From: Cenococcum geophilum
Lineage: Eukaryota
DNA: 64,000 bases
Assembly (NCBI GenBank): GCA_050273025.1
Contig: CP158635.1
Span: 9,362,001 to 9,426,000 of the forward strand
Reading direction: 5' to 3'
The translations under genes were made by a program, and so were the position numbers. The first letter of the stretch is position 1, and the number at the start of each line of letters is the position of its first letter. Shown here one piece after another: positions 1 to 45,049 of the stretch. The notes beneath the pieces are model-generated. The model did no database searches. It saw only the letters and a list, made by a program, of their open reading frames with translations, and had not been told where the DNA came from.

Positions 1-3000
1 GGCACCTTCTAAAGCTATATTAATAACGCCTTACGGGACTACCTTAACGACTTTTACTCTACGTACCTAGATAATATACTTATTTATAGCAATAACCCCT
101 TTAAGTATACTAAACACGTTTAAAAGGTCCTATAGCGCCTTAGGGACGCAGGACTTTATATTAATTTAAAGAAATGCGAATTCTTAGTTATAGAAGTAAA
201 ATACCTTAAACTAATTATTACTACTAAGGGTGTCCGTATAGACCCTAAGAAGGTATATATAATTACTAAATAGTAAGCCCCTAATTGCATTCAGGACGTA
301 TAAGCCTTCCTTAGTTTCGCTAACTTCTATTAAAAATTTATATACAACTTCTTAGGCGTAGTAGTACTATTTATAGCAATAATATAAATAAAGGGCCTTT
401 CTATAAAAGGAAGAAAAACGTACCTATGCTTTACCTAGACGCTTAAATACGAGAAGGCGTTCTAAGACCTTAAAAATACCTTTACTAAAGTACCTATTCT
501 GGCTTACTTTATACTAAAATAATAACTCTACCTTAAAACTAACTCCTTAGACCATATTAACGCAGACATTCTTTCCTAGATAGGCGATAACGGTCTTCTT
601 TACTTATTTATATTCTACTTATCTAAGCTTATATTATAAGAGTATAACTATAAGATCTATAATAAAGAACTCCTTATAATTATATAAGCGTTTAAAGAAT
701 TCTAACTAGAACTCTCCTTAGTAGAGCCTAACTAGTTAACTAAAGTCCTTACAAACCATCGCAACTTTAAGTACTTTATAACTATAAAGTAGCTAAACTA
801 ACGCTAAGCACGTTAGAATGAGTTCCTCTTTAGTTTTAACTTTAAAATTACGTATAGACTAGGAGTATAAGGTAATAAACCTAATAGCCTAATACGCCGC
901 TCGCAAGACCTTCCTTAGTTTAAAGATAACCCCTATAATTAGTTCTAACAATAGATAATCCTAAAAGTACGAAATTTAGCCTTAGGTATACTACCTATAA
1001 TAGAGCTAACTATAACTAAGCTTTATACTATAAAACTAGAGTTACCTCCTAAAATTAATAAGCTTATTACTACGGTATATAACGCCTCTATTAACCTATT
1101 ACTATATTAACTTATTACTGTAAAGACCGCTAGCGCCTATATACTACCTACTAACCTCTAAAGCTTAGGCTAGATTAATATAGCAGCCTTAAAAGTAAAA
1201 GAGAATAGGCTCTATTATAGAGGCCGCCTATTTATCCCTAACTTAGAAAATTTATAACGGTAACTAATCTAAATGGCCTATAACCTCCGATTAAGCGGCT
1301 ACCTAGGTAAAAAAGGAACCTACGAGCTTCTTAGCTAATACTACTTCTGGCTAAAAATAATAGACTTAGTTAAATACTTTATAGGCGCCTACTATAGTTA
1401 TAAGCGCGCTAAGGCCTTTAATATAAAGTACTAAGGATTACTATACCCTTTACTAGTACCTATATAATAATAGGCAGATATTGCTATAGATTTTATTATT
1501 AACCTACTACTTTATAAACGACATGGCCGTACCTATAAGAACATCCTTAAAATAATATGCCGACTTATAAAAGAGTGCTACTACGTCCCAACTAAAGGCG
1601 TAGCCGTTAGCGACGTTACTAACGCCTTTCTTTACGAAGTTTATTAACTATATAGGTTACCTAACTTAATTACATCTAACTAAGGTATATAATTTAACTC
1701 TTATATATAAAGACGAATCTGCTAACGCCTTAGTATCTCTATTAAAATATTTATATTCTTTTATTATAAAAATACTAGGCAACCAGAAAACGCTAATGCT
1801 AGTATAAAAGCGTACCTATAATAGGTAGTCGCCTATAGTTAAGATAACTAGGTAGATTACCTCCTACTAGGTAAATTTACAACGAATAACTATATCTTAA
1901 CCACTATAGGACTTACCCCGTTCTTCGCAAATAAGGGTTATTACCCCTAATCTAGTATAAAGCCACCAAAACCTATTAATAAAAAACTACTATATAGAAA
2001 ATGCCTTAAGATACTACTTACTAACTAGTATACAGACCGTATAAAAAATCTACTTAACTACTATAAGGGAGAAATGGCCTAGGCTTAAGCAAAGTAGGCC
2101 TACTTCGCTAATTATTATAGAACGCCACCACCGGAGATGCGTGTTGGCAACTAGGTATGGCTAAATATACGCAATATCTCTATATAAAGGCCTATAAAGT
2201 TACTTAATTATAAGAACATTGGCCCCTATCTAATTAAATAAGTTATTAATAGAGGAGCTGTATATAAGCTAGAACTCCTACCTACCCTAGCTACCTATAG
2301 GATATAGCCCGTATTTTACCTATAGCTACTACACCTCTATTAGCCTAACCCCTTATTAAGGCAGATACAGACTAAACCCCTATTAGTATTAATTTAAGAT
2401 AAGAACAAAGACAAGAACTATAAAGAGTAGACCATTAAATAAATTATTAACTCTAAATACTTTAGCAAAGGTAGAGGATAATAGCTTTACTACAGAGCTA
2501 TATATACAGGATTTAATATAGATTAGCCAGAATAACAACTATAGGAAGACTTTAAAAATGTAAAGGATTTAATTAATAACTTTTACTACGCGAACTTATA
2601 GAAACTAGGCCTAAGCAAAGACTTTATACCTAATTCTCTATAGGAGCCCTTATAGAGTTAAACCGTTATACATTACTATATAAGGGTAAATTACCGTTAA
2701 ATTACTATTAGATTGCGGTAAAGTATAATTACGTAACCGGAATATTATTAAGATATCTAGGAACTTTAACCGGCGGTTAAAGTTATCTAATTGGTTAGAT
2801 TCTTAGATGCTAAGCCCTATTATATAACGTTGTTTTAAGCCTTTAGTAATACCCCCCTTTTCTTCTTTTCTATACCTTAAGTGTCCCCTCTATATATATA
2901 TAGTAACCACAGCGTCGCCAGAGCTCCACCTTTATAAGAGGGGGGGTAGTGTTATAGAACCCCATCGCAGGGGCCTCTATAGGAGAGCCCCGTGCTCTTA

Positions 3001-3142
3001 CATATACCTTACGTATAGCTTATATCAGCTACGCGTAGGTATATTACCTCCTTACACCCTCGACCCTTACGATTAATTGTATAATATCTTATAGACTCTT
3101 TAAATACATACGCTTTATAGCCACTACCCCCGTCCTATAATA
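1..3142 (+). mobile_element. Ty3/Gypsy LTR retrotransposon family A, copy 1 (5' part outside window): RIP-degenerate RT end, RNase H, integrase, chromodomain, PPT, 3' LTR
   Basis: TAC CTA GAT AAT (RIPped YLDD) at 64-75; RNase H NY.IY.KELL motif near 645-675; integrase motifs; PPT AGAGGGGGGGTAG then a 193-bp LTR at 2950-3142; colinear with 24180-27296 and 37020-40321. Confidence 0.95.
2950..3142 (+). repeat. 3' LTR of family A copy 1 (193 bp)
   Basis: TG...TA (RIPped CA) ends; matches the LTRs at 20996, 27104, 37667 and 40129. Confidence 0.93.
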
Positions 3143-4789
3143 ATCTCTATAATAAGAACGGGTGAATACTATATTATAAAGCGGGAAGACCTTTATTAAA
3201 AAGGTATCTAATAAAATATAAAGCCTATTAAACGCGTTTAGTATCTATAGTTATAGGGGAGTAACTGTTAGCTATAACGAACTAATATAGCTAGTAGAAT
3301 GGCTCCGCTAGTTTAGCAAACCTTAGGCGCCCCTCTAGTAAACCCTTAATTAAATCCTCTAACGGCTAAGTAAAATTAAAAATAAATAAAACCTCTTCTT
3401 ACCGGTGAACCGTACCTGGGCCGCCGTAGCTACGCTTTTATAGTATAGGGAACCTACCCCCCTAAAGATAATAACTGGGTATATAATTATAATATAACTA
3501 AATACGGAAAAGGTAGAGGGGCTAAGGGGATAATTAGAAATAGAAGTCCTTATAGAGATTTATAAAGAGGTTTATAACGCTATTATAGTCTAATACCTTA
3601 AGAGCGAAGATATTAGAGTTACCCTAAGGGACTAATAGGCAAAGGAATAAGCCGTAAAGGTAGGGGATAGGCTAGGAGAATGTATTAGCATAAGAGTGCT
3701 CTATGAAGATTACCTAGTTAAAGTCCTAGCGGTCCCCCTAAGCCTTAGGGTAAAAAAGGGACGCTAGGCGGATAATATAGCAACTATATATAAGATAGTA
3801 AAATAAACGGAACGCCTTATACTAGGACTTAAGATTACCCGAATTTAATAACTTTAATAGGAAAATATAAATTAAGAATATAATAAGAATAATAAGAGGA
3901 TATAAGGGTCGCTAAAGACTTGATAGGGAAACGCTGGTCAAACGTATAGCTCCCTTATTGTTAGTATATATATATTAGAAATATAAAAACTCCTTATCTA
4001 AAAAGGCATTATTATAAATAGCCTTATATATAATATAAGGCTCTATAACCATAAACTCCGCCTAAAATAATGCTATTACTATATATAATGGGGACATACC
4101 CAATCTATATGCGTAGTATAGGTGTGCTGCAGCCACTATATAGGCCCCTACGATATAATATACTGCTTAAATTAAGACTAAATAAAATGCGTAAATTGCT
4201 ACTAAAGCATATATAAGGCGTGGGGGAGAGAAGACTGTATTAAATATAGAAGATAAAAGGTAAGGGCTTAATAGCTGTAAGAATAACTACACGCTAGGTT
4301 ATATAAATGGAAATAATAGGTAATAAGCTAGGGGGGTGTAGGCGCCTTTTTAGCGTTTCCTACCTTTAATACTAGGGGGCTAGGCTAGCCATCCTAAGCC
4401 TTAACGGGCTAAAAGTGACGCTACGTAATATTACTAGACTATATAGGGATATAAGGGAGAGGACGCCCTATAGGAAGACCCTTATAGACAGCTATAGTAA
4501 GCTTAAGACTAGGATAATTAAGAATTAGACTTAACGTAGCAAATATAATATTTATAGCCGACTCTTAAAGGGTATATAGCTAACTAGTAAGAATAGGGGA
4601 AGAACTAGAGATAATAACAGATTTAAATATAAAAGTGCTAGTAGGAATATAAGATATGGGAATAGAAAGCTCTATATAAAATAAGTAGTAACTAGGGTGT
4701 AGATATAAGAGATAGAAGTTTTAAATATCCTAAAGAAAGTAAAAATAGAAGAAGTAAGAAATAAAGGAAAAGTAAAGGACTCTTACTAG
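3143..4789 (+). pseudogene. Tad1-like LINE, piece 1: degenerate ORF1 (gag-like) with zinc knuckles
   Basis: TWAAVA motif near 3415; CX2CX4HX4C-like knuckles at about 4071-4210 (C..C.QWGHTQ..C when de-RIPped); continues after element B across the ACTAG TSD. Confidence 0.8.
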
Positions 4790-7700
4790 TGTTACGGAGT
4801 AAGTATAAGCGACGATAATATATAGCAAAGTAGATATTATTAAGCTATATATATAAACTGTGTGATAAGATCAAGACGTTGCGTAAGGAAAGAAGGTAGG
4901 AAAATGGGAAGAAAGGGCATATATTGTTGACTTGGTTACTTAGTTAATATATATATAGGGCAGAATAGGGTTTAAGTCGTGGACCTAGCAGAACTTAGTA
5001 GAATTTGGTGGAACTTGGTAAAATATGGCAGAATGCTATAGATTGCTATTAGATTGCTATTAGATTACCGTTAGATTGCTATTTCGCGGTTAGTCTTTAA
5101 TTGCTAAGTTGGTAAAAATAGGTGGACATGTGCAAGGTATTACGGGGGTGTCCCGTAATAGTACCCCCCTTTTAAACTTAAGCTTCTACGAGATAGGGCT
5201 ATAGTAGTTCTAGGTGGAGTTTATAAAAGTCTTTTATAGCTTATGTAAGTCCTACTAAGTTAACAGGTTCCTATAAGGGCTTAATAAAGCCTCTCTATTT
5301 TATAAGGTATATATACTAGTGTTTCCGTTTATTATACTTAATAATATAAATTCTTTTAATAAAGTACTTATTCTTACTATCCACTTTAATTAGTAGGGGA
5401 AGGTCTTATATCTATCTAGGCAGGGCGTCTAATATAGGGGTAGTAGGGTAGAGGACTGACGTATAGAATATAGGGTGGATTTTAACCGTATTAGGGAGCT
5501 TTAGTTAGTAGGCGTAAGAGAAAATAACCTTCTTAATCTTGTAAGGGCCAGCGTTCTTCTAATTAAGTTTCTTAGTAGGTCGTTTTATGTTTAGGTTTCT
5601 TATATCTAGCTAGATAAAGTTACTAATTTAATAGGCTAGTACTAGGGTTTATTTTTTATTCGCTGCGGCTTTATAGACAGATTAGGTCTATATTATTTTA
5701 TTAGTAAAGAACCGTTATAGTTCCTTTATCTTTTTTATAAATTTATTTACTTTTATAACTTATAAGGTGTAATAAGCGGGGCGAGGAACATTACTAAAAG
5801 GGTTAAAGCCTATTTATAGGTGCTAGCTATAATTGGCTAGGAATGGGGAGACCTTTATAGTTTCTAAGATGGAATTATTTACGGTAAACTTAGTAAATAC
5901 AAGCCAGTTAATCCAGTTATCTTATAAGTACGACGTGTATATCTAGATGTACTATTCTATTATAGCGTTTACACATTTTATTTAACTATCCGTTTTTAGG
6001 TGGTATGCTATAGATAATAGTGCTTTAATACGGAGTCGGGTAGTTAGTTCTTTTTAGAATATAGAGATAAACTAGTTGCCTCTATTGGAGATAATTGTTT
6101 TAGGGAGTCCGTAGAGTTTCTATACGTGATCTAAGAATAGTTAGGTAATAGTAGGCGTTAATATATTAAAGCAGGCAATTAAGTACCTTATCTTAGATAG
6201 TTGGTCTATAACTACTATAATGTTTATATAGCCTTTACTTATAGGGAGGTTAATAATAAAGTTAATTAAGATATCCTTCTATCTTCGGTCTAGAACAGGC
6301 AGTAGCTTTAAGAGGCCGTTGTACGTCTTATGCGAAGCTTTAGCTTATTAGTAGATATAGCAGCTAGAGATATACCTTCGTGTTATATTATATATATTTG
6401 GCTAATAGTATTCTTATTAGAGCAGTTCTAGGGTTTTTTCTTAGCTTAGGTGGCTGGCTACTGGTAGATCGTATATATGTTTAAGGAGCTTAAGCTTAAG
6501 TTTGTTATAGTTAGGTATAACTAGGCGGTTTTGGTAATATAAGCGGTTTCCGCGGGCTTTATATTTACTTAAAGAAATCTTTTTAGAGTATCTAATGCTA
6601 TTATGCATTAGTTTAAGCGTTTTCTGGATAAACTTATTAATTGGGTATTTATTAGCTATAATCTGTTTAATTAATTAATTAGTTATTTTAAGGACGTATA
6701 CTATAAGGTCTTTAGTGGGAGGGTTAAATAGTTTAGGGTAAAGTAGGGTCTAATTTTGGTAGGAGCGCGCTTCTTTTAGGGCTGGCGCGTCTTGCAAGCA
6801 TTAGGTTAGGGCGTTAGGCTTCTAACCTTAGACGCCTAGGCGGTATATAATTGAGAATTGGAAATGAGACAGATATTCTAACTAGCGGGCCTAATAATAA
6901 CTTAGCTGTTTCGTGGTTGTGAAGTACTATAGGTTTTTATAGTTGCTAAGGACTTTAATTAAAAATCTAGCGCCTTTTAGTTTAGGTTGCTATTGTTTAA
7001 AACATCTAATAATAGCTAATAATTTCTTATTGTAGATCTTGTAGTTGCATTTAGCTAAGTTTAGTTATTTTAAGAAGTATGCTATAGGGTGTAATACTCT
7101 ATCCTTATTATATTGAGATAGAATGCCTTTAGTAACGTAGTTAGATAAGTTGGCTTCTATAATACTTATTTGGTTTAGGTTAAAGTGTTAGAGTATAGGC
7201 GCAGTAGTAAATATAACCTTTAGATAGGTAAAGGCCTTCTTACATTCTTTATTAAAGATAAAGACTTTATCCTTTTAGGTTAAAGCTATAAGGGGTAAAA
7301 CTAGGGTAAAGAAGTTATTAATAAACCCTTAGTAGAAATTAGCAAATCCTATAAAGGCTTTTACGTCCTTAACGTTCTTAGGTTCTTGCTAGTTTATAAT
7401 TGCTTTAACTTTCTTTAGGTCCATTTATATACTATTTATAGAAATAAGGAGTCTAAGGTATAGAACTTCCGTTTTATAGAACTCGCATTTATTTATATCT
7501 AATTATAGACTAGCTCCGTGTAGGGCTTATAGGATAAGGTTAATATACTTTCGATGTTTGGTTAGGTTATTACTATATATTAGGATGTCGTTAATATAAG
7601 TAGTATAGAAGATGTTTAGGTAGGGGCGTAGGGTATTGTTTATATAATGTTAAAACGAGCTTAGAGTGTTTGTGAGGCTAAAGGGTGTTACTAAGTACTT

Positions 7701-10696
7701 AAATAGTCTATATTGGGTACGAAATGTAGTAAGCTATTTGTCTCCTTTTATAATATAAAGATGGTTAAATATAGAGATAATATTAAGCTTTATGTAGTAA
7801 TGAGCCTTACTTAGTTAGTTTAGCGTTTCTTATATTAATGGGATTGGATATTAGTTCTTAACGGTAACGGCGTTAAGAGCTTAGTAGTCTATATAGAAGT
7901 ATAGACCGCCGCTAGGTTTTTTAATAAAGATTACTAGTGCTGCTATAGGCGACGAGCTTGCTCTAATAAATCCTTTACTTAGGTTTTTATCTAAATACTT
8001 TTATAATACTTGGAGCTTATTTTGGGATATTTTATATAAGGGTTTAAATCTAGGCTGCTTTCCTTCTTTAAGTATAATCTTATAGTTGTATGGTTAGTGT
8101 TCCAGTAGCTTATTAGCTTTCTTTTATAAGAATGCATCTAGGCGATAATAATACTCTACTAGTACCTTTATGGTAGGGTTAGTGTGCTTCCTTAGTGCTA
8201 AGGCCTTCTTAATATCGGCTATTGTAATAGTGAAGATTATATGCTTGGGTTTCTTAGTAAGTTGCGCTAGTAGGGTAACTCTAATTATGTGGATATTTAG
8301 GGCGCCGAGGTTACTTAAATTGCCTATAGTTTCTTATATAGCTTCCTGTTTAGCTTTGGGGTTAGTATTAGGTATAGAGTTAGTATTAGATTTAGGTTTG
8401 GGTTCTTTAAATATGTTCTTTATAGTAGAGTACTAGTCCTTTTAGTACTTTTATGTGGTAAGCTTAAGCTTTTGCTTAGCGTGGGGTGGTGTAGTATTTG
8501 GGGTCTGCTTGTGGGGTTTAGTGAAATTTTCGGATCCTTAGTAGATATTGGTGGAAGTCTTATATTGGTGGAATTTGGTGGAATTCTCAGGCTAGTAGAT
8601 CTTGGTGGATTTTTTAGATTTTAGTTTTAGGTCTAAGTAGTAAGTTATAAGGTACTTCTACTTGTAATAGGAGGTAGTAAATAGAAGCTTAAGGTTGTCC
8701 TAATTAATGGTTACCTTATATAGCTTTATCTAGGGTTGTCTAAGAATTACTAAGTGATTTAGGGTGGTGATAAAGAGCCTAATTAGTTCTTTGTGGTTTA
8801 GGAATACTATATAGGTAATATAGCCTAAGACGGTGCGTTTATTATTAAATCTAAATACGTTAATGTGCCGGTTAAGGGGGGTTAGGGTAAAATTATTATC
8901 TTATATAAAGATCTTATTAATAAATCCTATGCCGCTGGCTCCTGTATTAATTAAGACTTAAGCACTAACCTATTAATTATTCTGCTATAGGCGGTAGTTA
9001 ACGGTTATACTATAATCCTAAGAGTTAGAGTTTGTGATATCTAAAGTATTTAATAAAATCTTAAGGTAGAGCCGTTCTGGAGAGCGACTTAGCTCTAGGA
9101 CCTTCCTTTTAGAGGTGATTAGGACGGAGTTCTTATAGCGTGTTAGTTGTAGTCTCGTCCTTATAAGTAATGCTTACTATATAACGTGTTAGAGCCGGAT
9201 AATAATTGGGGTTGGTGGATAGAGCTTAGTTAAGGTAATTGGTTACTTATACTAGTTATCCTTTTATATAATTAGGATAGTAGTATACCGCCTATACTAG
9301 GTGTTTAAATATTTATTTTAGGCAGGGGGATAGAGTAGTAACTTAAGATATAAGTATTGCTTCCGCACTTAAAATAAAGGCCATATTTAATATATTATTT
9401 ATATTTAGCAGATCCTTTTAGGGCGTAAGAGAGGGTTCTAGCGTTAATATCTATAGCGTCTAGGTCCTTACGGGTCTTAGACGGCTAGGGGGCAGAGTAT
9501 TAAGGTGTATATTTTAGGGTAAGGCGTAGTATATTATTATATAGGCCGTTAATAATATTGGCGTAGGTAGTAAGGGTATCTAGCAGTTTAACTCCTTTAG
9601 TTTAGAGTTTAAGGATTCTATTAGGCGATTAATTAAGGCGGGTTTATTTTATTTAGTCTCTTTAGTATAGTGGTGGAACTTAGTAAAGTATAATAGGAAG
9701 TTCTTAGAGCTATATATTTTCTTATTTAGTTTCCTTTATACTATTATAATTTGGTTAGGGTTGCTATAAGATACTTCTAGTATAGTAACTAGTTTTTTTA
9801 TAGTATTTGGCTGGAACGGGTATATAGTTTCCGCGGCGTCTTCTGTTAAATGGCTTATAATATAATATAGTTAACTATTAGGGGTGGGGTAGCGATTAAT
9901 ATTACCGTTTAGCTTGTTCTTAAGTTAGTTAAGAAAGGAGCGTAGTTTGCTCCTTTTACCTAAATAGGCGGGAGGATTAGGGAGACGTTTAGTGAGCTTT
10001 TTTATGGGGGCACTAATTGGCGAATTTAGGGTTAAGGAGCTAGTCTTAGACACGTCTTCTCTATTTAGTACTTATAGATTAACACTAGTAGGGATAGGTA
10101 GGGGCGACGGTGGGTTACAGTAGATCTCTTTAATTTCTTTTCTTAGGGATCCAATTATTTTTTTCGTGTTAAGCCTCTTATTAAGTAAGGGCATTTATAA
10201 AGGCCTATTGCAGGCCCTTTATTTATTTAGTAAATATGTTATATAAGTTAGTTATAAATATAGGGGCTTTTAGGTTGTTCTACATATTAGGCGGGGCGAG
10301 GTGGTATAGGTTTAATGTAATGTAGTGTTACGGAGTAAGTATAAGCGACGATAATATATAGCAAAGTAGATATTATTAAGCTATGTATATAAATTATATG
10401 ATGAGATTAAGACGTTACATAAGGAAAGAAGGTAGGAAAATGGGAAGAAAGGGCATATATTGTTAACTTGGTTGCTTAGTTAATATATATATAAGGTAGA
10501 ATAGGGTTTAGGTTATAGACCTAGCAGAACTTAGCAGAATTTAGTAGAACTTAGTAGAATATAATAGAATGCCGTAGATTGCCGTTAGATTGCTATTAGA
10601 TTGCCGTTAGATTGCTATTTCGCGGTTAGTCTTTAATTGCTAAGTTGGTAAAAACAGGTGGACGTATATAAGGTGTTATAGGGGTATCCTATAACA
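4790..10696 (-). mobile_element. Full-length Ty3/Gypsy family B element (5.9 kb), RIP-degenerate
   Basis: 371-bp LTRs at 4790-5160 and 10326-10696; TSD ACTAG (4785-4789, 10697-10701); reverse PPT at 5161-5172; minus-strand gag, PR, RT, RH, IN, chromodomain remnants. Confidence 0.96.
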
Positions 10697-10701
10697 ACTA
10701 G

Positions 10702-11222
10702 GGGTCCGCTACCTATCTATTATATAGTATAACTGCGGCAATATAAACTACTATTTTATAAGGCCTTTACTAGACAGCCTAGGCCTAGAGAAATACTATA
10801 TCCTTACTATATAAGAGCTGTATTATAATGCCTATATATAATTAATATACTGCCTCTAAGGATATTAGCTTCTATATAAACTAAAAGCAGCTATATATAT
10901 ATGCTTTATAATTAGCAAGGCTATTAGCCTATCCTTATAGTTATAGCAGGCAGTTAACCTAGATATTATAATTATAATAATTTAGATATATAGGGGACTG
11001 GTATAGATTATTAATATATATAACCCTAGGGTTAAAGGGGTCCTATAAATAGAGAATATTATATTAGTAATAAGCTTACTAAAAACTAAAGGTATAGAGT
11101 TTATTTTATTAGGAGATATAAACCTCTACTACCTATAGTAGGGGGGTATCTATATTGCTGCTAAATAATAGGTAAAGTGCCTATTAAGAGCTATAAACAC
11201 CTAGGGCCTTAAGCTAGCTACC
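10702..11222 (+). pseudogene. LINE piece 2: start of ORF2, APE-type endonuclease
   Basis: I.QYNCGN motif near 10720, IINIYNP near 11005, LGD.NLHHP.WGG near 11110 (de-RIPped). Confidence 0.85.
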
Positions 11223-14200
11223 TATAAGGGGATCTTGTAGACAGGGGGCTATAAGGACACGATTGGAATAGGATAGATTAGTGAGAGAGACGAATCCTTA
11301 AGGAGGTAAGACCTCTGGGATCGTAGAGACTATATACTACGGGCACGTGCCTCCGGCACGTGACCGGCGACCATCCGAGGGGCGTCCGGGGGTTGTCCTA
11401 AGGGCAACCCGAGGTGTCCGCAATAATATCCCTTACATTGCCCCCCCCCTTCTTGCGGTCGGCCCCCGATCGCCATTACCTTGCGGTAGGGAGATTATAA
11501 GGGCTCGTCCTGGAAGAGGTTCGGAGAGATGTCGGAGAGGTGTCGGCATGCCGCTATATATTATCTATCTATCTAACCCCTGCTTTAAACTCCTGAAAAA
11601 CCTCAATAAGGAAAAAACATAACTGGAGAAAAAACGTGAGGATTGCTAGGAGACCCATCGGAAGCCTACTAGAAGCATGCTGGTGACTACCTAGGCTAAT
11701 ATAGGGATTTTCATGCAACTCTACTTCTAAGCCTTTATGCCGGTCTGCAATTAATCACGAGTATTATAGGCAATTTGGTGTTCCAGTATAGTTCCGTAGA
11801 ACCTTTGGTATGGGATTTAATATATAGAGCCTTGGCTTGCCGTTATCTTTAACTGCTGAGATATAGTTTATAATCTTTTCTTATAATCCCCTGCGTTACT
11901 AACGCATTGCTCCCGCATTTGCCCTCAGGTTATTAGACGCGGTTAAGATATTAATTAGTTAGTTAAAGAGACTTGTCTCTTAAGATTTAGTGTATATAGT
12001 TTTAAATCTGGTAGTCCTGTGCCGTATATTTAGTATAGCTCTACTGCTTAGTAAATAGGGACATTTTGTGATAGCAATTGTAGCTATTGTGCGATTGTTA
12101 AGAACGTTTATAACGTTGTTCTTTAATACTATAGTATTATTTTAGGCCTAATTTAACCTATATGCGTCTTTGATTTGATGTCTTAATTACCTTCCCCCGG
12201 CCGCGTAGTTAGTTTTTATAAGGAGGTAATAGTTAAATAACTTATACACGTGTTTCCTTCCTTTTAAATAGCGCTATTATAACGGAGTTATATTAGTAAG
12301 GTTGCGGCTATTTACCGGAAGGGTATTGGAAGGTAAAGTATAAAGATACCTTGCTTATCGAGCTGCTCCTTTTCTTAAATACCTTACTTCTTGCTATTAA
12401 CCGTTGTCTAATTTTAGACATATCTTCGATATATTATTAAGATTTTCTTCTTTTTTATTAATAATTCAATATGCCTCTTCGTTCTTCTACTGACTGCTCT
12501 TCTAAGTAAATTTTATAGCGTATCCTGGCCCTGCCTTTACATATAGAACCCCAACCCCTGCTGACCCATAACTAGTGCTAGTCCTACTTAAATGATTTTG
12601 CCTATACGTTTTTGAAAGACCAGAAATCTGATAATAGGATTCTGGAGGCTTATAATAAGACGCACTACGTTAGATCTAATACCTTTAGTCCTTATAATCA
12701 ATGTATGCGTACTAAGAGCGGCAGTTGCGTTAAGGTAAGTTTTTCTATCCTTAATAGATTTCTATTGCTAACTTTAAGCTTTAATAATAGCCTAGGCCTA
12801 AATGGCGACGTTCCTTTAATATCCTTGACTACTATATTACCTAGGCTCTCTCTTATTCTAGCGTAAATGCTAAATAACTTAGCCGAATTCGAGACTATAC
12901 CACAGCTATCTATACTGTCTATAATTCCCAGCAAGCTAGCCAGCAACGCCTAATATAAGAGTAAGGTTGGTATACTGAGGATAGGGTAAAAAATAGGGGT
13001 AATAAGAAGAAGGTTGCCGTCTACTATAGGAAGGAGTTCGCGTATGCGCGTTAAGTTTCAAAAGAGTATAACATGATGCGGTATTAGGTAGGTTACCCTT
13101 TAGGTACCTAGTGGATAGGTAACTAATAGTTACCGTAGTAAGGTCTTAGTGGTTCTGGACTATACCAGCTAGCTAATGTCTCTGTTTATTCTAGGCTTAA
13201 GCGTATCTTTATTAACTATAAGCTTACGCCGTAAGAGCTTTGTTAGTATTGGTTTAAACCTAATATTAGTGTTGAGCGTTTAAGAGTCTCTACTCTAGCT
13301 ATACCTTATTATCCTGCCCCTGTTTTTATACCTACTCGTACGCCTACTAAGGCATCTGGATCCTATTCTTATTAGCTATTACTTAGTGGCCTAATAGATA
13401 CTGATCCTACTTTTGATGATAATAGGGCGTAGTGGCTTTTCAGATTGGGCATTTGTGGTTTAGACTTTTGGGATTTGTTTTTGTATATAGTAATAATTAA
13501 GGACCTTAATTAGGTGCTTGGGAAGGCCTTAGAAGGCTTTTAGGAAGGGCTTAGGAGCCCTAGGAATAATGTTCCTAGTATAGATTAATGAATGGGAATG
13601 CAATTCTAGCAAAATGCCCTATTAACTCTATGCTATGTATATGAAAAGGCTGAGGACCTGTTCTACCTTAGGCTATATAGCCCTAATCCTTATGGTTTCT
13701 GGAGCTTATCTATTCTATATCTAATTTAACCTATTTACTCTTTTCGCGAGCTTTCTTTATAGGTTGCGATAATACCATAGTATTAGAGCGCTTTTTGTAA
13801 TTTATAAATTATAGACCTTAGTCCTAATATTTTTTTAGAATATCTTTATAATAATTAAGGTAATCCTCTAGTTTCTATATAGAGTCCTTAGCGGGCCAGC
13901 TTAGCTATTTGACTTTAAATTAAAGCTTGTTTTTAATAGACTTATAGCATAATATAGCTTTAACCTTATACCGCTTGCCTACTACCTTAGGGTATTTAAT
14001 TAGGCCTAGACGGAAGTTCTTTTTTGGTGGTGGTCTATACTATAGCTCTAGTAGGTTTATATAAAACACTAGATATATACAGGCTATAGATAGGGGTAGC
14101 TAGAGATAATAGGCTAGCTTACTAATTTGTTTCTTAACTTAGAAGGGACCTAGGTATCTTATATTAAGCTTCTTTAATAGTTAACGGGTCTTAATATTTG

Positions 14201-17200
14201 TTAAACGTAATAAAACCTTATCGCCTACTCTAAAATGCTTGTCTTAGTGCTTATAGTTATACTAAAGTCTCTACTACTCTTAGGTATTTTGTAGGCTCTA
14301 CTTTACATACTTCTATTACTCCTCCTATTTCTAGAGATATCCTTATACTCTCTAGTAGATGTTCTTAGACTTCCCGGTAGAATCCTATAACTAATTATAC
14401 GGCCTTAGCTAGTAATTGTTGGGTATACTATTAAACCTAAATAGTTGGACGCTATAGGTAATCTGGATTGGTATATACTTATATAATATATATTGCTTTA
14501 AATTATAAGCGTACTCCGCGTACGGAAGTAGCTTATATTAATTATCTTACTAGTAGTTTAAATATATCCGTAGGTAAGACTCTAGTTCCTAGTTTTGGCG
14601 TTCTATTTACCTATCCGTCTATAGGTGGAAAGCTATACTATAATAGTGGTCTATCTTTAAATAGAAGTATAAATCCGACTAGTACTGGCTTATAAAGACG
14701 CTGCCCCTATTAGTAATAATAGAGTGCGGCTAATTTACTTTAAGAAAGTATTTCTCCTTAATTAGGTTGGCGAGCTCTTATATATTAATCGTCTTATTAA
14801 TAGGAAGGTATTAGACGTACTTTAAAAACCTATTAATAAGTATGAGGACTAAATTATATATTTGTCCTTAGCTATCTTTAGATGGCGGGAGATCTGTAAT
14901 GAAGTCTATGGCGTAATATTACTATGGCTTATTAGCGGGGGGAACTAATTTAAGTAGACCCTATGGCTTGTGCCTATAGATCTTATATACTTAACACTTC
15001 TTATAATAGCTAATATACTCCTTTGCTTCCTAATTAAGCCTTAGCCAATAGTATTTACGCTAAAGTAATTCTACTGTCTTTACTTAACTATAGTGGCCGC
15101 CTAGAGGATTATTATAATTCTTTATAAGAATCTTCTGTTATAGATTTACTTCTTATAACACCCAAACCTTACTACCTCTACGTAGTAGGCCTATCGGGTC
15201 TAGTTCCTAATAGTGGCGCCTAGTAGCTTCCTTTCTGTTACGTTTCTGGTCTACTTCCGTATTAAAAATAGTATAGAAAGCGTCCCTCTGTTACACCTTA
15301 TAGATGAGATCCGTTAACCCTTTGGATGGTTTCTGGGTAAAAGCTATTTTGTCCTATACTGCTCTAAGTACGAGACTAGATAGTACTATAGATCTTGTAA
15401 CTCTTTAATGCGCGTATATTAGGAAGGCCGCTATAAGGTTAAAGTCCTTTAGTTATTATAGGGCTCCGAGTTCTAATTACTCTATAGCTTTGCTATTGGT
15501 TTAAGGGGATAGCTTAGCAATTAGGGATGGTATATTACTAGGTTCTGAGAATGTATTAGGGACGTCCTGTCTAGGTATATTTAGACCCTTATTGGCAACG
15601 GACCGGGTACTAGCTAGAACGTCAGTAGAAACTAATGGGGCTTGTACTGCCTAAGACTCGGTATATAGAGCTATAGGTACTTGAGCATCCTATACCTAAA
15701 GCTTGTTCTATAATGTAGGGAGTAAGATATCTATTATCTGTTTTCCTTCTCCCGTTTTAAAGCCTTTGGCATAGTCTAGCTGTTGTGACGGTCTATTAGT
15801 AGGGTTGTTTTCCCCTAGCTTGTATTTAATCTTAAAATTAAATCGCGTGAGCTCCTTTGCCTATCTGGCTTGTTGAGGTATAAGCTCCTTTATAGTTATA
15901 AAGTAGCGTAGATTATGGTAATCTAAGAGTATATAAGTAGTATAGCTCGCGTGCTTAAGGTAATGTCGCCACTATTTAAAGTAGTTAACTATAGCTAGTA
16001 GTTCCTTATTGTGGGTATAATACCTAACTTTAGGTCCCTGGAATTTTCTGCTATAAAATGCTACTGGTCTCTAATGGAGCTAGGTAGCGTCTGGATGCCT
16101 GTTAGGTTATAGTAGGATACCAATAAGGGTAAAATTTAATGCATTAGTGATTATTATTAATGGCTAATCTGGGTTGAAATGCCGCAGTAATAGAGCTTCT
16201 ATAAACTTTGTGCGAAGTTCCTGGAAGGCCTTCTAAACCTTTCCGGGCTATAACTATAGCTTATACTATTTGGTTGGTCCCTTCTTGGTTTTCTTCCTTG
16301 CTGCCTTTAAGCTTTTTGCTTCTTGGGTTAGGTTTTGGGAAGCTTTTGTAATATAGTTAGATAGGTATTAGGTGACGTCCAAGTAGTTATAAATAAAGTG
16401 CCTATAGAAATTGGCAAAGCCTAGGAACACTTAAATATCCTAGTAGCTCTCTAGCTCTGGCTACTTCTAGATTGTCTATACCCGTACTAGGTCTATAACT
16501 ATACCTGTAGGCGTTATAATATAACCTAGGAACTTGACCTGCTTAGTATTAAAGATATACTTTAACGCTTTGGTGTAGAGGCCCTAATTATCCAAACGTT
16601 CTAGTACTTCGCGGATGTATTACTTGTATTAATCCTTGTCTTCTAAGTAGATTAAGATGTTATCTAAATAGAAAACGCATGTGTAGTTAACTAGTCCCCC
16701 TAAGGCTCTATAAATGTATGATTAAAATGTTATAGGCGTATTGGCTAGCCTAAAAGGCATTACTAAATACTTAAAGTGGCTATATTGGGTCTTAAAAGCG
16801 GTCTTTTACTTATCCCCTTCTTTAATACGGAGCCTATAATAGGCGTCTTATAGATCTAACTTTATAAAGATCTTCGCCCTAGATAGTTAATCCAGTATTT
16901 TACTAACTAGTAGTAGTGGGTAACGGTTCTTAATTATAATCTTATTAAGACTGTGATAGTTTATATATAGCCTTATAGTTCTATTTGGTTTTAGGATAAA
17001 GAAGATCGGCGCGCCTAATAGCGACTTACTAGGCCGGATCCATCCCTTTTTTAGTAAGCTATTAAAGTACTCCTATAGGATCTTAAGCTCTTTATATAAG
17101 AGGTTATAGATAGGAAGGTTTAGTGGTTGTTTACCTTCTTTTAGATTAATTACGTGATTGTACTCTAAGTTCTACGGTAGGACTTTAGCTCTCCTACCTA

Positions 17201-20129
17201 AAAATACCCTTAGTAAGTCCCTTAGGCCTACTAGAATATTTAATAAATTAGGGTCGCGTTTATCCTTCGCGTTATTATTAGGTAGGTCCTAGAGCTCCCT
17301 TAGGATACTTATGGGCAGCGTTATGCGCTATAATAGTTACTTGTATATAGTTGCCACTATATATTAAACCGTTTTATACGGTAGCCAATAGAGGGTAGGG
17401 AACTCCTTAACGCAGCGTTTAAGGTACTGTAGTATACTCTCCGTATATTGCTTAAGCCAGAGTAACCCGTGGCGGTTAAAGTATCTCGTAAGATCCTTAA
17501 GATCGCCGCCTCCCTGTAATATCTCTGCGACCTATCCGGTAGTTCCCTATAGGGTCTCTGTTATAGAGGGGTTATTACCTATACTAAGCTTTATACCCAT
17601 CTTGCTATTAAATAGGGGTTAGATCTAATACTTCTTTAGGTGTAGAGCGTACACTATTTTACTTAGGGCTACATTCTCTAGAATGTCCTTTAGGCTTGTT
17701 AGTAATATACGCCCTTCCAAATCTTTATCGTTCTACTATTTAAAGGCTTCTGTCTTAAAGCGTATCTTAAAATCTGCTTTCGCAAGCTAAGGGTATCTAA
17801 GGATAAGGTTATAACCTACAAAGTTAGCCGCCTAGAAGGGTTATAGGTTGACCGCCTTAGTGCGGTTATATATATTAGCTACTAACACTATGAGCTTATA
17901 GGCACTATATAGCTTAATCCAATACTTATTTAGGAAGCCTATAATAGGTTTCCGCCACCTTTATAATGGGATAAGTTTATACTCTTTTACTAAATTATAT
18001 TATATAAGATTGATTTTGGTGCCGCTGTTATATAGTGCTTAGAACTGTTATACCTTACCTATAGGGAGTGTTATTTTTAGCTTAATAGCAATATAGAGAG
18101 TCTTTTCTTTTATATCTTACCCTAGTTGCAGCTAGGAAAGGTCCGCAACTAGGGCTTTTCTTTTTTTGGATTATTAGTGCGGTTATTGCCCTACTTGTTT
18201 TTCTAATAAGATTTACCTCTAGAGTTTTCTTTTGACTTCTTAGAGTGTTTCCGTAAAGGTGCTAGACGCGTGTTAGGTTGGCCCTGGGAGTCTTTTCCGT
18301 TATTTAAGGTTCCTAACTTTAACCCTTCTAAAGTTCTTTTTAAGAACGGCTTTTTTAAAGGTTAGGTCTGCCCTATATTACTACTAAAGTGCCTATACTT
18401 TTAGTGACCCCCCGGCTTTCTACCGGAAGAGGTCTGGTTTTTTACCGCGTCTTTAGTATTTAAAACTGCTTGTTTGAAATCCGTATATATAGTAATCCGC
18501 AATAGGGCTCCTACGCGCTTTATTTTGTCATAAATTGCTAGCTTAATTTTAGCCTAGATAAACCCGATCTTCTCCTTCTTATAAATACTACTGTCCTTGT
18601 TTTTAAAGGGCTCTAAATCTATTTATTAAGTATAAGTTTTTATAAAGTTTATAAACTGGCGGAAGTTATAGCGGTCTAGCTGTATCCTATTCTAGAATAG
18701 CTCTATATTATTATATTATACAATATGTAAATCTTAAGTCTATTTCTTTAGGAAGGTTTATAGCTATAGCTATATAGTAATTTGCTCTTTATTAAGCTAA
18801 TTAAGTGCGATCTAGTTTAGTGATCGGTCTTTAATCTTACTAATAATCTAGCGTATACGCTCTTTAGTATTATCTTGTATTATTAGCATCTTAAAGAAGT
18901 TATCTACCTTATGAACCCAATCGTCTAACTGTTGGGCGTTGGGTTTATGGCGGAGTTTTAGACTATTAAAGGCCTTAGCGAGTCGGTCTATGTCCTTTTT
19001 CTATTTATAGTGTAGATAACTCTTTAAGTCTTCTATACCTCCTTAGGTAGGTACTAAGTAGCTCCTAGAAAGCCCTTAGCCTTAACTAGGTTATAAAAGA
19101 ATTTGCCTAGCTTAGATTAAACCCTACTAGATCTAGATTTGCCCTTAGAGGGTTCTAATATATTTATTAGTAGCTTCCTCCCATATGGCTTCCGAGAGCC
19201 TTATAACAGCTTTTTAATATCTATCTTAAAGGAGATCAGTATAGGGCTCTTAACCTTCTAAACTTAGGCCTGGGGAGGCTCCTGCTATAGAGGTAGTATT
19301 AGTACTAGTAGCTAGTATAGGCTTCCTAACAAGGCTTGGGTCCTAAGTCAGTAATTAGCTTAGATTACCTAAAGGGGTAGGCCCGCTTAGCTCGTAAGCA
19401 GTCTATACACCGCTACTATACTAATTGTAGGCCGGTGGTCTTCTGGGAGGGTTCTGGTTGGTTCCCTGGTTAGATATATTAGTATATTCCTCTGGCATTT
19501 TTAGCTTAGGGGAAGATCTTAGAGTTACCTCTGGCGCTTAATCTTCTGATTGGCCTAGGTGGGGCCGGAGGGGTTCCGGTTGCTTTCCGGCAGCGTTGCG
19601 ACCGTTATAGAGGGTATCTGCGTTTTCCTTAGCGGTGACTGTAGGTGTACAAGAGTCTTCGAGCTCCTGGAGCATCTAGGTATTGGGGCTTATTTGGCCG
19701 TCTTACCTAGAGGGTTATATTGTCGTAATCTCTCGCTATTAGAGGGACCTTCCTACCTTTGCGCGACGGCTTTCTATAAGGTATCCGTGGGGTTTCCGTT
19801 TAGGTCGTCGCGAGATTTTTAAGGGAGGATAGTGGTTGTAAACAAAAGATATAGATAAATAATTTGGTCCTTAAAGCTGACTGCCCTTCTAAAAAAGAGT
19901 AGGAAGGATTTAAATATAAGGGGATCTTGTAAACAGGGGGCTATAAGGATACGATTGGAATAGGATAGATTGGTAAGAGAGATAAATCCTTAAGGAGGTA
20001 AGACCTCTGGGATCGTGGAGACTATATACTACGGGTATATACCTCTAGCACGTGACCGGCGACCATCCGAGGGGCGTCCGGGGGTTGTCCTGAGGGCAAC
20101 CCGAGGTGTCCGCAATAATATCCCTTATA
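11223..20129 (-). mobile_element. Full-length Ty3/Gypsy family C element (8.9 kb) with a long 3' region
   Basis: 215-bp LTRs at 11223-11437 and 19915-20129; TSD CTACC (11218-11222, 20130-20134); reverse PPT at 11438-11453; pol remnants at about 13750-18200 and gag at about 18200-19800 on the minus strand. Confidence 0.96.
12471..13432 (+). pseudogene. Antisense accessory gene of family C: RIPped, two introns, six-Cys Zn-cluster-like N-terminus, about 285 codons
   Basis: ATG at 12471; CX2CX26CX8CX2CX7C (three Cys intact, three as TAY); intron GTAAGT..GCTAAC..TAG at 12735-12790 (alternative in-frame AAG acceptor at 12778); intron GTAGGT..ACTAAT..TAG at 13088-13138; single frame after splicing with an acidic tail; the 3' end is uncertain. 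Confidence 0.72.
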
Positions 20130-20134
20130 CTACC

Positions 20135-20324
20135 CCCCTAGGAGTAACTATATAGCAATAAGGCACCGCTAGAAGTATAATTAACCTTATATTTATAGAT
20201 AAAGGCCTATACTAGAGACTTAAAAGGTATAATTCTAAAGAAGAATAAGTACTTACTTTAGACTATATCCCTATCTAGATATAGCTAGATCTAGATATTA
20301 AGGCGTAATTAAATAGTAAAAGAT
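20135..20324 (+). pseudogene. LINE piece 3: end of the endonuclease domain
   Basis: T..RG..RS.IDL.F and SDH.PI motifs (de-RIPped); bounded by the TSDs of elements C and D. Confidence 0.82.
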
Positions 20325-23900: not shown

Positions 23901-26900
23901 TTACTAAGAAGCTAGGAGGAAGTATCTAATTCTACGTTAACTATAGAGGACTTAACGCTATTATAATTAAAAACTAATACCTAGTACCGCTTATATAGGA
24001 GACCCTTAAGCGGCTTAGCTAAACTAAAATCTATACTAAGCTTAATATTATTACCGCCTTTAACTACTCTTAAATACAGGAAGGTAACAAATGGAAAACC
24101 GTATTTATATTGCGCTTTAGCCAATTTAAATATACCGTTATACCCTTTAGCGTATATAACGGCCTAGGCACCTTCTAAAGCTATATTAATAACGCCTTAC
24201 GGGACTACCTTAATGACTTCTGCTCTGCGTACCTAGATAATATACTTATTTATAGTAATAACCCTTTTAAGTATACCGAACATATTTAAAAGGTCCTATA
24301 GCGCCTTAGGGACGTAGGACTTTATATTAATTTAAAAAAAATGCGAATTCTTAGTTACAGAAGTAAAATACCTTAGACTAATTATTACTACTAAGGGTGT
24401 CCGTATAGACTCTAAGAAGGTACGTATAATTACTAAATAGTAAGCTTTTAACTACATTAAAGATATATAAGCCTTTCTTGGTTTCGCTAACTTCTATTAA
24501 AAATTTATATATAATTTCTTAGGCGTAGTAGCACTACTTATAGCAATAATGCGAACAAAGGGCCTTTTTATAAAAGGAAGAAAAACGTACCTACGTTTTG
24601 CCTAGACGCCTAAATATAAGAAGGCGTTCTAAGACCTTAAAAATGCCTTTACTAAAGCACCTATCCTAGCCTACTTTACACTAGGATAACAACTTTATTT
24701 TAAAACCAACTCCTTAAACCACGTTAACGTAGGCGTCCTCTCCTAGATAGGCGATAATAGTTTCCTTTACCTAGTTATATTCTACTTGTCTAAGCTTATA
24801 CTATAAGAGTATAACTATAAGATCTATAATAAAGAACTCCTTACAATTGTATAAGCGTTTAAAGAATTTTAACTAGAACTTTCCTTAGTAGAGCCCGACT
24901 AGCTAACTAAAGTCCTTACGGACTATTATAACCTTAAGTACTTTATAACTATGAAGTAGCTAAACTAACGCTAAGTATATTAAAATGAGTTCCTCTTTAG
25001 TTTTAACTTTAAAATTATATATAGACTAGGAGTATAAGGTACTAAACCTAATAGCCTAATACGCCGCTCGCAAGACCTTCCTTAGTCTAAAGATAACCCC
25101 TATAATTAGTTCTAATAATAAACGATTCTAAAAGCATAAAATTTGGCCCTAGGTATACTACCTATAATAGAGCTAACTATACCTTAGCTTTATACTATAG
25201 AACTAAAGTTACCTTCTAAAATTAATAAGCTTATTACTACGGCATATAATACTTTTATTAACCTATTACTGTATTAACTTATAGCCGCAAAGACCGCTAG
25301 CGCCTATACGCTACTTATTAACCTCTAAAGCTTAGGCTAGATTAATATAGCAGCCTTAGAAGTAAAAGAGAACAGGCTCTATTATAGAGGTCGCCTATTT
25401 ATCCCTAATTTAAAAATCTATAACGGCAACTAATCTAAATAGCCCACAACCTCTAATTAAGCGGCTACTTAGGTAGAGAAGGAACCTATAAGCTTCTTAG
25501 CTAATACTACTTCTAGCCAAAAATAATAGACTTAGTTAAACGCTTTATAGGCTCCTACTACGGTTATAAGCGCGCTAAGGCCTTTAATATAAAGTACTAA
25601 GGACTACTATACCCTCTACTAGTACCTATATGACGATAGGCAGATATTGCTATAGATTTCGTTGTTAACCTACTACCCTATAAATAACACGGCCGTACCT
25701 ATAAGAACATCCTTATAATAATATACCGACTTATAAAATAGCGCCACTACGTCCTAACTAAAGGTGTAGCTGTTAGCGACGTTACTAACGCCCTCCTTTA
25801 TAAAGTTTACTAACTATATAGGTTACCTAACTCTATTACGTCCGACTAAGGTATATAATTTAACTTTAATATATAGAGACAAATCTGGCAACGCCTTAGT
25901 ATCTCCGTTAAGATATCTATATCCTTTTACTATAAAACTGCTAGGTAACCGGAAAACGCTAATGCCAGTATAAAAGCGTACCTACGATAGGTAGTTACCT
26001 ATAGTTAAGATAATTAGGTGGATTACCTTCTACTAGGTAAATTTATAGCGAATAATCATGTCTTAACCACTATAGGATTTACCCCGTTCTTTGCGAATAA
26101 GGGTTATTACCCCTAATCTAGCATAGAGCCACTAGAACCTATTAATAAGAAACTGCTATATAGAAAACGCCTTAAGATACTATTTACTAACTAGCATGCA
26201 GACCGTATAAAAAATCTACTTAACTACTATAAGGGAGAAATGGCCTAGGCTTAAGTAAAGTAGGCCTACTTTGCTGACCGCTATAGAACGCCACCACCAG
26301 AGATGCGTATTGGCGACTGGGTATAGCTAAATACACATAATATCTCTATATAGAGGCCTATAAAGTCACTCGATTATAAGAACCTTAGCCCCTATTTAAT
26401 TAAATAAGTTATTAATAGGGGAGCCGCATATAAGCTAGAACTCCCGCCTACTCTAGCCACCCGTAGAATATAGCCTATATTTTACCTATAGCTACTATAC
26501 CTCTATTAGCCTAACCCTTTACTAGGGCAGATATAGCCTAAACCTCTATTAGTACTAATCTAAGATAAGAACAAAGACAAGAACCACAAGGAGTGGACTA
26601 TTAAATAAATTATTAACTTTAAGTACTTTAGTAAAGGCAGAGGATAACAGCTCTACTACAGAGCTATATACACAGGATTTAACATAGATTAGCTAGAATA
26701 GTAACTATAGGAAGACTTTAAAAATACAAAGGATCTAATTAGCGACTTTTACTACGCAAACCTATAGAAACCGGGCTTAAGCAGAGATTTTATACCTAAT
26801 CCTCTATAGGAGCCCTTATAGAGTTAAACCGTTATACATTACTACGTAAAGGCAAATTACCGTTAGATTGCGGTAAAGTGCGATTACGTAACTAGAATAT

Positions 26901-27296
26901 CGTCGAGATATCCAGGAACTTTAACCAGCGGTTAAAGTTGTCTAATTAGTTAGATTTTTAGATGCCAAGCCTTATTATATAACGTTGTTTTAAACCTTTA
27001 GCAATACCCCCCTTTCTTCTTTTTTATATCCTAAGTGCCCCTTTTATATATATATAGTAACCACAGCGTTGCCAGAGCTCCGCCTCTATAGAAGGGGGGG
27101 TAGTGTTATAGAACCCTACCGTAGGGGCCTCTATAGGAGAGCCCTGTGCTTTTACGTATACCTTATATATAGCTTATATTAGCTACGCGTAGGTATATTA
27201 CCTCCTTACGCCCTTGACCCTTATAATCGATCGCGTAACGTTTTATAGACTCCTTAAATACATACGCTCTATAGCTACTGCTTACGTTCCGTAACA
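20996..27296 (+). mobile_element. Full-length Ty3/Gypsy family A copy 2 (6.3 kb), inserted in the gag region of element D
   Basis: 193-bp LTRs at 20996-21188 and 27104-27296; TSD CCTCT (20991-20995, 27297-27301); gag with CCHC near 22670, then PR, RT, RH, IN, chromodomain remnants. Confidence 0.97.
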
Positions 27297-40321: not shown

Positions 40322-40622
40322 GTCCTATAGATATATTTAAGTTCCTTCTTAGAAAGAAGAGTAGATAAGCTTTAGATAATATTAGTAACTTAGTTAATTA
40401 AGGTATAAGTACGGTAAGAGGGACGCGTAAGCCTATATAATTAGTAGTCTATAAATAAGGATTTAAAGCTAAGAAAAGGAAAGGAGATAGAGGGTGGCGC
40501 TACTTAACGTTATATATAATCCTCTAGTTACGTAATAGCAATTATCTAAAACTGTCTAAAACTATCTACGATTGTCCGCCACAATCCACTAATATTTACT
40601 AGTTTTTACTAGCGCCGTAATA
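40322..40622. repeat. Probable partial LTR of an unidentified element (E), interrupted by family A copy 3
   Basis: Non-coding with short internal repeats; ends in an LTR-like terminus CCGTAATA (compare GTAACA) exactly where Copia coding sequence resumes; partner LTR not in window. Confidence 0.55.
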
Positions 40623-44980: not shown

Positions 44981-45049
44981 GTCACCTTGATTCGATCGAT
45001 CGATCGAATCGTTTATCGTGTTCGCTGGCTGGTCGTTCGAACGGTTGTC

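Follow-up and report, generated by a model that had tools for sequence, protein, structure and literature searches.

Remnant of a probable intron-bearing accessory gene antisense to gag-pol in a RIP-mutated Ty3/Gypsy chromovirus of Cenococcum geophilum

A stretch of 64,000 nucleotides of the Cenococcum geophilum genome (assembly GCA_050273025.1, contig CP158635.1, positions 9,362,001 to 9,426,000 of the forward strand; hereafter the window, in whose coordinates all positions are given) contains a long terminal repeat (LTR) retrotransposon, a single Ty3/Gypsy chromovirus of 8,907 bp on the minus strand (11223-20129, with 215-bp LTRs). A candidate gene sits in the 2.3 kb separating the pol stop of this element from its 3' LTR, antisense to the element. 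The analysis indicates that this region is very probably the remnant of a real accessory gene of a very high-copy fungal chromovirus, inactivated by repeat-induced point mutation (RIP). The gene would be antisense to the genomic RNA and converge on pol, and its predicted structure comprises three exons (12471-12734, 12791-13087 and 13139-13432, the last possibly reaching 13513) and two short canonical fungal introns. The copy in the window is dead, with 14 internal stops, and the case for a gene is made by comparison with related copies. An original prediction, drawn from the letters of the window alone, had proposed an antisense gene with introns within an LTR retrotransposon; the minus-strand orientation of the element and the codon-phase and synonymous signature described below bear it out.

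The window is AT-rich (GC about 0.33), as fungal RIP leaves it. Searching proteins with the frame of exons 2-3 led to one database open reading frame (ORF), P0001, and a scan of metagenome contigs with P0001 led to 80 loci, all of them full-length colinear copies of the element with 84-89% identity and all containing the gene region; about 70-80 copies were aligned, the number varying by segment. The original prediction had looked to an alignment of this family (family C) as a check, and the alignment does bear the gene out, although the window itself holds only one family C copy and the others come from outside it. All fetched copies are RIP-mutated, with GC of 0.31-0.42 across the gene region; C-to-T and G-to-A transitions, concentrated at CpA/TpG, dominate among the copies, and RIP correction raises GC from 0.38 to 0.54. 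In one public sequencing run (X1), 10,658 contigs map onto the region, and of the 389 places of change 381 are transitions. Such numbers make this a very abundant family, of which the gene region is an integral part. No column of pyrimidine-adenine (YpA) dinucleotides keeps C in 95% or more of the copies, and of the 412 polymorphic YpA columns, 79 retain it in less than 5%. Since RIP is near saturation across the family, with many sites changed in every sampled copy, invariant TAA or TAG codons are not reliably ancestral; at codon 12438, 74 of 75 copies have TAA, whereas P0005 and P0010, two database ORFs, have Q.

RIP makes only transitions, and shared transversions were therefore used as a record of earlier divergence. 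In pol, taken as a control, 133 of 223 shared transversions occupy the third codon position. In the exons combined, the wobble position of the proposed frames received 26 of 34 shared transversions (p = 3e-7). Counted by coordinate modulo 3, the transversions of exon 2 are distributed as 0, 12 and 2 (wobble 12/14, p = 8e-5) and those of exon 3 as 3, 11 and 1 (wobble 11/15, p = 0.0018); for exons 2 and 3 together the wobble count is 24/30 (p = 2e-7), and the peak coincides with the wobble position of plus-strand frame +2. Synonymous changes in the proposed frames make up 24 of these 34 transversions, and 13 of the 14 in exon 2 alone; beyond 13433 no phase stands out (5, 6 and 7). Judged from these sequence comparisons, the three exon frames carry the signature of past purifying selection.

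The same counts bear on a reading in which the constrained coding lies on the minus strand, in the sense of pol, as an env-like or other extra ORF whose shadow is seen in the plus frames. The longest open stretch after RIP correction is indeed found on the minus strand, where 272 codons run without introns from 13279 down to 12464. However, between 12791 and 13279 the wobble position of this frame receives just 2 of 19 shared transversions and that of the plus frame 17, and the minus-strand frame crosses 12735-12790, where 16 of 74 copies show length differences not divisible by three. No Pfam family matches this frame, whose codons lie in antiparallel register with those of plus frame +2, the arrangement from which shadow ORFs usually arise. 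As a coding frame, the 272-codon stretch is largely refuted by these comparisons and would be a shadow ORF; coding on the minus strand is very unlikely.

Indels, which RIP leaves untouched as it does transversions, were compared as shared events, i.e., those common to at least two copies (70 copies aligned, event counts merged by hand). In the 970 nt upstream (11450-12416) shared indels are frequent, with about 20 events of lengths that are not multiples of three, and from 12417 to 13410 they occur only within intron 1 (+1, -10 and -3); further shared indels are two -3 events at 13411 and 13423, and a -15 event at 13452. At the upstream rate, the 852 nt of the exons should have received 17.6 frameshifting shared indels, and none was found (P about 2e-8); an exon frameshift common to the copies, named in the original prediction as one outcome that would speak against a gene, is thus absent. 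Exon 1 has the same length in 72 of 73 copies, while lengths that are multiples of three are kept in 73 of 75 copies for exon 2 and in 77/77 for exon 3. Intron 2 has the same length in all 77 copies. The length difference of intron 1 is a multiple of three in 58 of 74 copies and is not in the other 16 (-10 in 12 copies, -9 in 6, -3 in 52, -2 in 2 and -1 in 2). The gene can be classed as an aORF-3R in the sense of PMC7264820: it lies in the interval from pol to the 3' LTR, in the orientation opposite to gag-pol, its region is present in all 70-80 aligned copies, and the wobble, synonymous and frame-keeping evidence supports coding.

A single copy would have left room for the view that there is no gene here, with chance in an AT-rich, RIP-mutated spacer accounting for the ATG, for the intron motifs and for the moderate openness of the frames. 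In the window copy, stop density fails to separate the frames, as the pol frame contains 3-13 stops per 100 codons, the proposed gene frames 4-8, and frame +0 continued without any intron 5-7; the original prediction had cautioned that the stop pattern is weak evidence by itself, and stop density in a single copy is not discriminating. Across the window, strict intron-like motifs number 10 for the plus and 8 for the minus strand, which is the density of dinucleotide shuffles (10.5 +/- 3.2); two such motifs within 962 nt are mildly above expectation (about 0.15 expected by the author's estimate). Purine/pyrimidine codon periodicity in the single copy is too weak for use, even in pol. From the window copy alone, stop counts and intron motifs are no better than chance, and the Pfam null results and the low fold confidence reported below also agree with an absence of any gene. 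Chance, however, does not produce 3-periodic, mostly synonymous transversions, nor does it account for exons free of the frameshifting indels that do occur nearby and in intron 1. On this sequence evidence the comparison of copies has already refuted the no-gene explanation, which is hardly credible.

The preferred gene model begins with exon 1 (12471-12734, plus strand, frame +0), whose 88 codons encode the Cys/His-rich N-terminal part of the protein. The alignment columns at the ATG (12471) contain A in 75 copies, T in 75 and, at the third position, G in 33 and A in 42, and the exon finishes with ...GSCVK at 12734. It has four RIP stops in the window copy and none in the RIP-corrected columns, and it is open in the database ORFs P0008, P0005 and P0010. 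The ORF 12612-12866 is exon 1 continued through intron 1 in frame +0, as had been proposed.

Upstream of the ATG, at 12237-12470, the ORFs P0005 and P0010 take their start from an ATG some 78 codons before 12471; the two differ by a frameshifted stretch, and the mutated copies carry 1-nt indels. We read this upstream sequence as a probably spurious, non-coding 5' extension. Extra upstream exons were also considered and rejected: a hint of periodicity at 11668-12119 faded in a proper alignment (7/11), and 1-nt indels are abundant there.

Intron 1 (12735-12790, plus strand) has the form GT..CTRAC..AG, is 56 nt long in the window copy and shifts the reading from frame +0 to frame +2. Its motifs are GTAAGT at 12735-12740, GCTAAC at 12767-12772 and TAG at 12788-12790; the start codon, the frame to ...GSCVK, the donor and the branch point were all found where the original prediction had placed them. 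The intron is 53 nt long in most copies and 46-47 nt in one subfamily; the GT was seen in 71 of 71 copies, nearly all have CTAAC or CTGAC, and AG is present too. Exon 2 (12791-13087, plus strand, frame +2) comprises 99 codons, is supported by transversion phase and by the keeping of its length, and encodes a basic, predicted helical part. It has no ATG until its codon 54, while synonymous changes begin at 12811, and translation would therefore have to enter it by splicing. With coding frames on both flanks, the change from +0 to +2, the confinement of lengths that are not multiples of three, and the GT/CTRAC/AG motifs, the predicted intron 1 is well supported.

Intron 2 (13088-13138, plus strand, 51 nt) is in frame and has the form GTAGGT..CTAAC..YAG. 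In the window copy the second motif set of the original prediction is present, with GTAGGT at 13088-13093, CTAAT at 13123-13127 and TAG at 13136-13138. The donor columns are conserved in at least 75 of 79 copies, and the branch site, CTAA followed by C in 34 copies and by T in 45, lies 11-12 nt upstream of the YAG acceptor. Three in-frame stops persist after RIP correction, and no database fragment was found that reads across 13124. Together, the motifs and the stops make it probable that intron 2 is real. A donor at 13042, giving a longer intron 2, was ruled out, as synonymous wobble changes extend to 13081. Exon 3 (13139-13432, plus strand, frame +2), with 97 codons followed by TAG at 13430-13432, encodes a Pro-rich tail; transversion phase supports it, and it is open after RIP correction.

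The window copy contains 15 in-frame stops including the last one, and all 15 are TAA or TAG, as had been claimed. Thirteen of the 14 internal stops can be checked in exon columns; 12 of these show C or G elsewhere and so revert to Q, W or R; the original prediction had derived the stops from CAA, CAG and TGG by RIP. The thirteenth, at 13085, corresponds to Q in the database fragments P0019 and P0020. The RIP-corrected consensus, which the original prediction had proposed to examine, is open in all three exons except at this codon.

The predicted spliced product consists of about 284 residues with an isoelectric point of about 9.7. Its N-terminus is Cys/His-rich, exon 1 having nine Cys, and is followed by a basic helical middle and by the Pro-rich tail of exon 3; exon 2 is predicted, with low confidence, as three helices. 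P0008 and the RIP-corrected reading of exon 1 are identical at 81 of 88 residues (author's count), and P0008, P0005 and P0010 apparently represent natural, unmutated exon 1. The Cys residues of P0008 are spaced as C-X2-C-X5-C-X15-C-X4-C-X8-C-X2-C-X7-C. This spacing differs from that of Zn2Cys6 (PF00172; C-X2-C-X6-C...C-X2-C-X6-8-C), for which no Pfam match was obtained, and DUF3716 (PF12511) had no match up to E 10 in P0008, P0005, P0010 or the translated copies. Searches of the Atlas gave best scores of at most 0.84, to be taken as leads only; in one Atlas cluster, at 0.79, DUF3716 is assigned to 28% of members, an assignment unconfirmed by Pfam. A viral_contigs scan with P0008 revealed no relative, and the protein similarity searches returned no protein with a name given by its source.

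Several points weigh against the gene as modelled. Exon 1 places 3 of 5 shared transversions on the wobble position (p = 0.21), too few for testing, and none of the 72-77 copies examined is intact. Pfam searches were null for the window exons (E up to 10), the ten best natural copies and the database ORFs, giving only chance-level rows (MOSC, E = 0.27; R1_ABCA1, E = 0.1), and PDB profile searches likewise gave chance-level rows only (E of at least 0.36). The BLASTP/HMM-type searches with the reconstructed protein that the original prediction had suggested found no relative outside the element family: a profile search over 1.84 billion representative proteins returned short family ORF fragments and one 830-residue match (7 stretches, E = 3.9e-4). 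AlphaFold modelling was of low confidence, with a mean predicted local distance difference test score of 34.7 for exon 1 and 40.3 for the exon 2-exon 3 alignment. RNA evidence for transcription or splicing was not obtained from the one thin RNA run (X21, about 12% read), which gave 76 reads, mostly from the LTR end, with a depth over the gene of at most 3 and no joints at the proposed introns, and is too thin for a verdict either way. The case for intron 2 consists solely of its motifs and in-frame stops, its constant in-frame length giving no comparative support, and the proposed function is drawn from composition alone. Finally, the last codon of exon 2 (13085-13087) is TAG in 79 of 79 mutated copies, the evidence for a former CAG there comes from two fragments selected for openness, and the gene's stop may be at 13430 or at 13511.

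The invariant TAG at 13085 is also what a different gene structure would be built on, for example a protein of exons 1 and 2 ending at this codon, with exon 3 used via a weak donor at 13082 or by skipping of exon 2, both of which are in frame (all phases being 0). In favour of such a structure, wobble transversions in exon 2 go no further than 13081, a GT is present at 13082, and the exon 1-exon 3 junction would be in frame. Against it stand the near saturation of RIP at many CpA sites, seen in the YpA columns mentioned above, the precedent of codon 12438, with its TAA in the mutated copies and Q in P0005 and P0010, and the Q found at 13085 in P0019, which is seemingly little mutated, and in P0020, both of which then run into a stop within intron 2. 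CAG/GTAGGT is, in addition, a better fungal donor context than GTATTA. Because RIP is near saturation and these two fragments have Q at 13085, CAG/GTAGGT is probably the original end of exon 2. A different structure is improbable but keeps some weight, the fragments having been selected for openness.

Returning to the three-exon model, the gene end at 13432 given in the original prediction is confirmed insofar as a TAG stands at 13430-13432, and this codon is T-A-G in 81 of 81 copies. It encodes Q, however, in P0001, P0018, P0021, P0026 and P0029, and is a stop in P0024, P0025 and P0027; because five database fragments have Q there, RIP may have created the stop at 13430 as well, and the original stop may have been either 13430 or 13511. 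The possible 27-codon C-terminal extension (13433-13513, plus strand) needs CAG at 13430 and would end at the next stop, TAG at 13511. Its sole indel is of -15 nt, in 27 of 80 copies, and it offers zero transversions for determining phase.

In the sequence around and after the gene stop, at 13382-13673, frameshifting shared indels are absent too. A minus-strand stretch from 13618 down to 13382 is open over 79 codons after RIP correction, and at 13532-13587 five of seven shared transversions fall on its wobble phase. This region may contain a small sense-strand ORF or a constrained 3' untranslated region (UTR), the numbers being too small to choose between them.

The pol domain order and the LTRs of the carrier element are those expected of a Ty3/Gypsy chromovirus. 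Self-BLAST of the window revealed a direct repeat, 11223-11446 versus 19915-20138, with 92% identity. The LTR termini, TATAAGGG...CCTTACA, are read as RIP-altered TG...CA, and the element is thus bounded by direct TG..CA-ended LTRs and by a short target-site duplication, CTACC, at 11218-11222 on the left and, identical in its 5 bases as read in the sequence, at 20130-20134 on the right. The 3' LTR occupies 11223-11437 (minus strand, 215 bp), is the self-BLAST partner of 19915-20138 and is colinear in the fetched copies; the 5' LTR, also of 215 bp, occupies 19915-20129 (minus strand), as given by the self-BLAST pair and the ends read. The complement of the polypurine tract (11438-11454, plus strand) adjoins the 3' LTR. 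The non-coding spacer between the 3' LTR and the gene (11438-12470, plus strand), to which the roughly 20 shared events mentioned above belong, shows weak codon periodicity and, by inference, would also house the antisense promoter, a putative role, and the 5' UTR. A 14-nt insertion at 11874-11890 in this spacer, present in about 40 of 70 copies and absent from the window copy, resembles a tandem duplication.

The gag-pol region (13731-19800, minus strand, its start being provisional) was identified by Pfam searches with a translation that reads through stops, and the coordinates of the pol domains were converted from residue ranges of this translation. Reverse transcriptase (16997-16515; RVT_1, 5.6e-23), RNase H (16235-15840; RT_RNaseH, 4.7e-20), the integrase zinc finger (15146-14982; Integrase_H2C2, 1.4e-09) and the Tf2-type SH3 domain (14225-14046; SH3_Tf2-1, 7.3e-12) all lie on the minus strand, and the order reverse transcriptase - RNase H - integrase within one minus-strand frame is that of a Ty3/Gypsy pol. 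In the RIP-corrected columns pol ends in a chromodomain-like motif, recognised by eye, with the first stop at 13731-13733; the Pfam Chromo profile had no match on the mutated window copy. The plus-strand frames between the LTRs, also with stops read through, gave no Pfam match.

Elsewhere in the window, a direct repeat pair (4787-5153 and 10323-10689, 89.6% identity over 367 nt) stops some 530 nt short of the studied element and probably represents the LTRs of a second element. A further repeat family is present in three copies (1-3145, 24168-27299 and 37015-40324) with mutual identity of 84-92%. At 44900-46900 a GC-rich island (GC up to 0.565) with long tandem arrays of 12-nt and 20-nt units is surrounded by AT-rich, RIP-mutated repeats.

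The antisense orientation offers an explanation for the persistence of the introns in a retrotransposon. The introns are antisense to the packaged RNA, which would carry no usable splice signals there; for this reason they would be copied into every new insertion, a suggestion consistent with their orientation and their presence in all copies. The product would be a small nuclear protein binding zinc and nucleic acid and regulating the element's own transcription or replication; such a role as a nuclear regulator is the most likely one judging by composition, and would make the protein comparable to brtn of Boty, gene23 of Grande or HBZ. Pairing of the convergent antisense transcript with the pol message at its 3' end could also yield double-stranded RNA.

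The closest known case is brtn of the Boty-like elements of Botrytis and Sclerotinia, described as an antisense extra gene between pol and the 3' LTR (PMC7264820, PMC8365987, PMC4227169, PMC5987419). As far as these descriptions go, both genes belong to a fungal Ty3/Gypsy element with a chromodomain (here the by-eye motif), both are antisense to gag-pol between pol and the 3' LTR, and both are carried by family copies; the name 'brtn-106' (PMC4227169), however, may mean a product much shorter than the approximately 284 residues predicted here. The comparison with brtn is by description; the profile search of the 1.84 billion representatives gave nothing besides own-family fragments and the 830-residue match. 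Plant Tat/Retand elements (Grande gene23, RIRE2, Retand; TRP28, PF04195) are likewise described in PMC7264820 and PMC11963269 as having antisense ORFs between pol and the 3' LTR. Those share the position and orientation of the gene studied here, are present in most copies, and have a proposed nuclear or DNA-binding regulatory role; in contrast, the plant elements are described there as being without chromodomains and as having longer pol-to-LTR regions of 2.9-6.6 kb, and neither paper contains the word 'intron'. TRP28 (PF04195) had no match in the protein studied here.

A search of the literature on intron-bearing antisense genes in fungal retrotransposons, and on DUF3716 together with retrotransposons, found nothing beyond brtn. 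Among animal retroviruses, HBZ of human T-cell leukaemia virus type 1 is a bZIP protein encoded by a spliced antisense gene transcribed from the 3' LTR. Like the gene studied here, it is a protein-coding antisense gene occupying the 3' end of a retroelement, and the HBZ intron survives replication, being antisense to the genomic RNA; unlike HBZ, the present protein was found to contain no bZIP or other known domain, and its splicing is predicted. HBZ is mentioned in PMC7264820 and PMC11963269. Antisense passenger genes are thus known, and have rarely been shown this firmly.

Extra genes of LTR retrotransposons are usually inferred from one open frame; here the variation of the family supplies the proof, even though the copy at hand is dead. 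This variation points to an opposite-strand gene that was once protein-coding under selection, needed at least one intron and was integral to a very successful element. Transversions and indels are untouched by RIP, so that their phase can recover the coding history of fully RIP-mutated repeats. The gene would be a clean example of an intron riding through reverse transcription in the antisense orientation, and a second, unrelated-looking fungal case beside brtn. The ORFs P0008, P0005 and P0010 suggest that unmutated copies persist somewhere. It is conceivable, though we hold it only tentatively and think it rather doubtful, that the gene is a member of a widespread and almost undescribed class, in which fungal LTR retrotransposons carry intron-bearing antisense genes for small Cys-cluster, basic nuclear proteins, kept by selection for controlling element expression or for shielding the element from host silencing; as part of the same tentative reading, the family would have reached thousands of copies before being destroyed by RIP. 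If true, such a class would correspond, in fungi, to the antisense regulators of retroviruses, HBZ among them.

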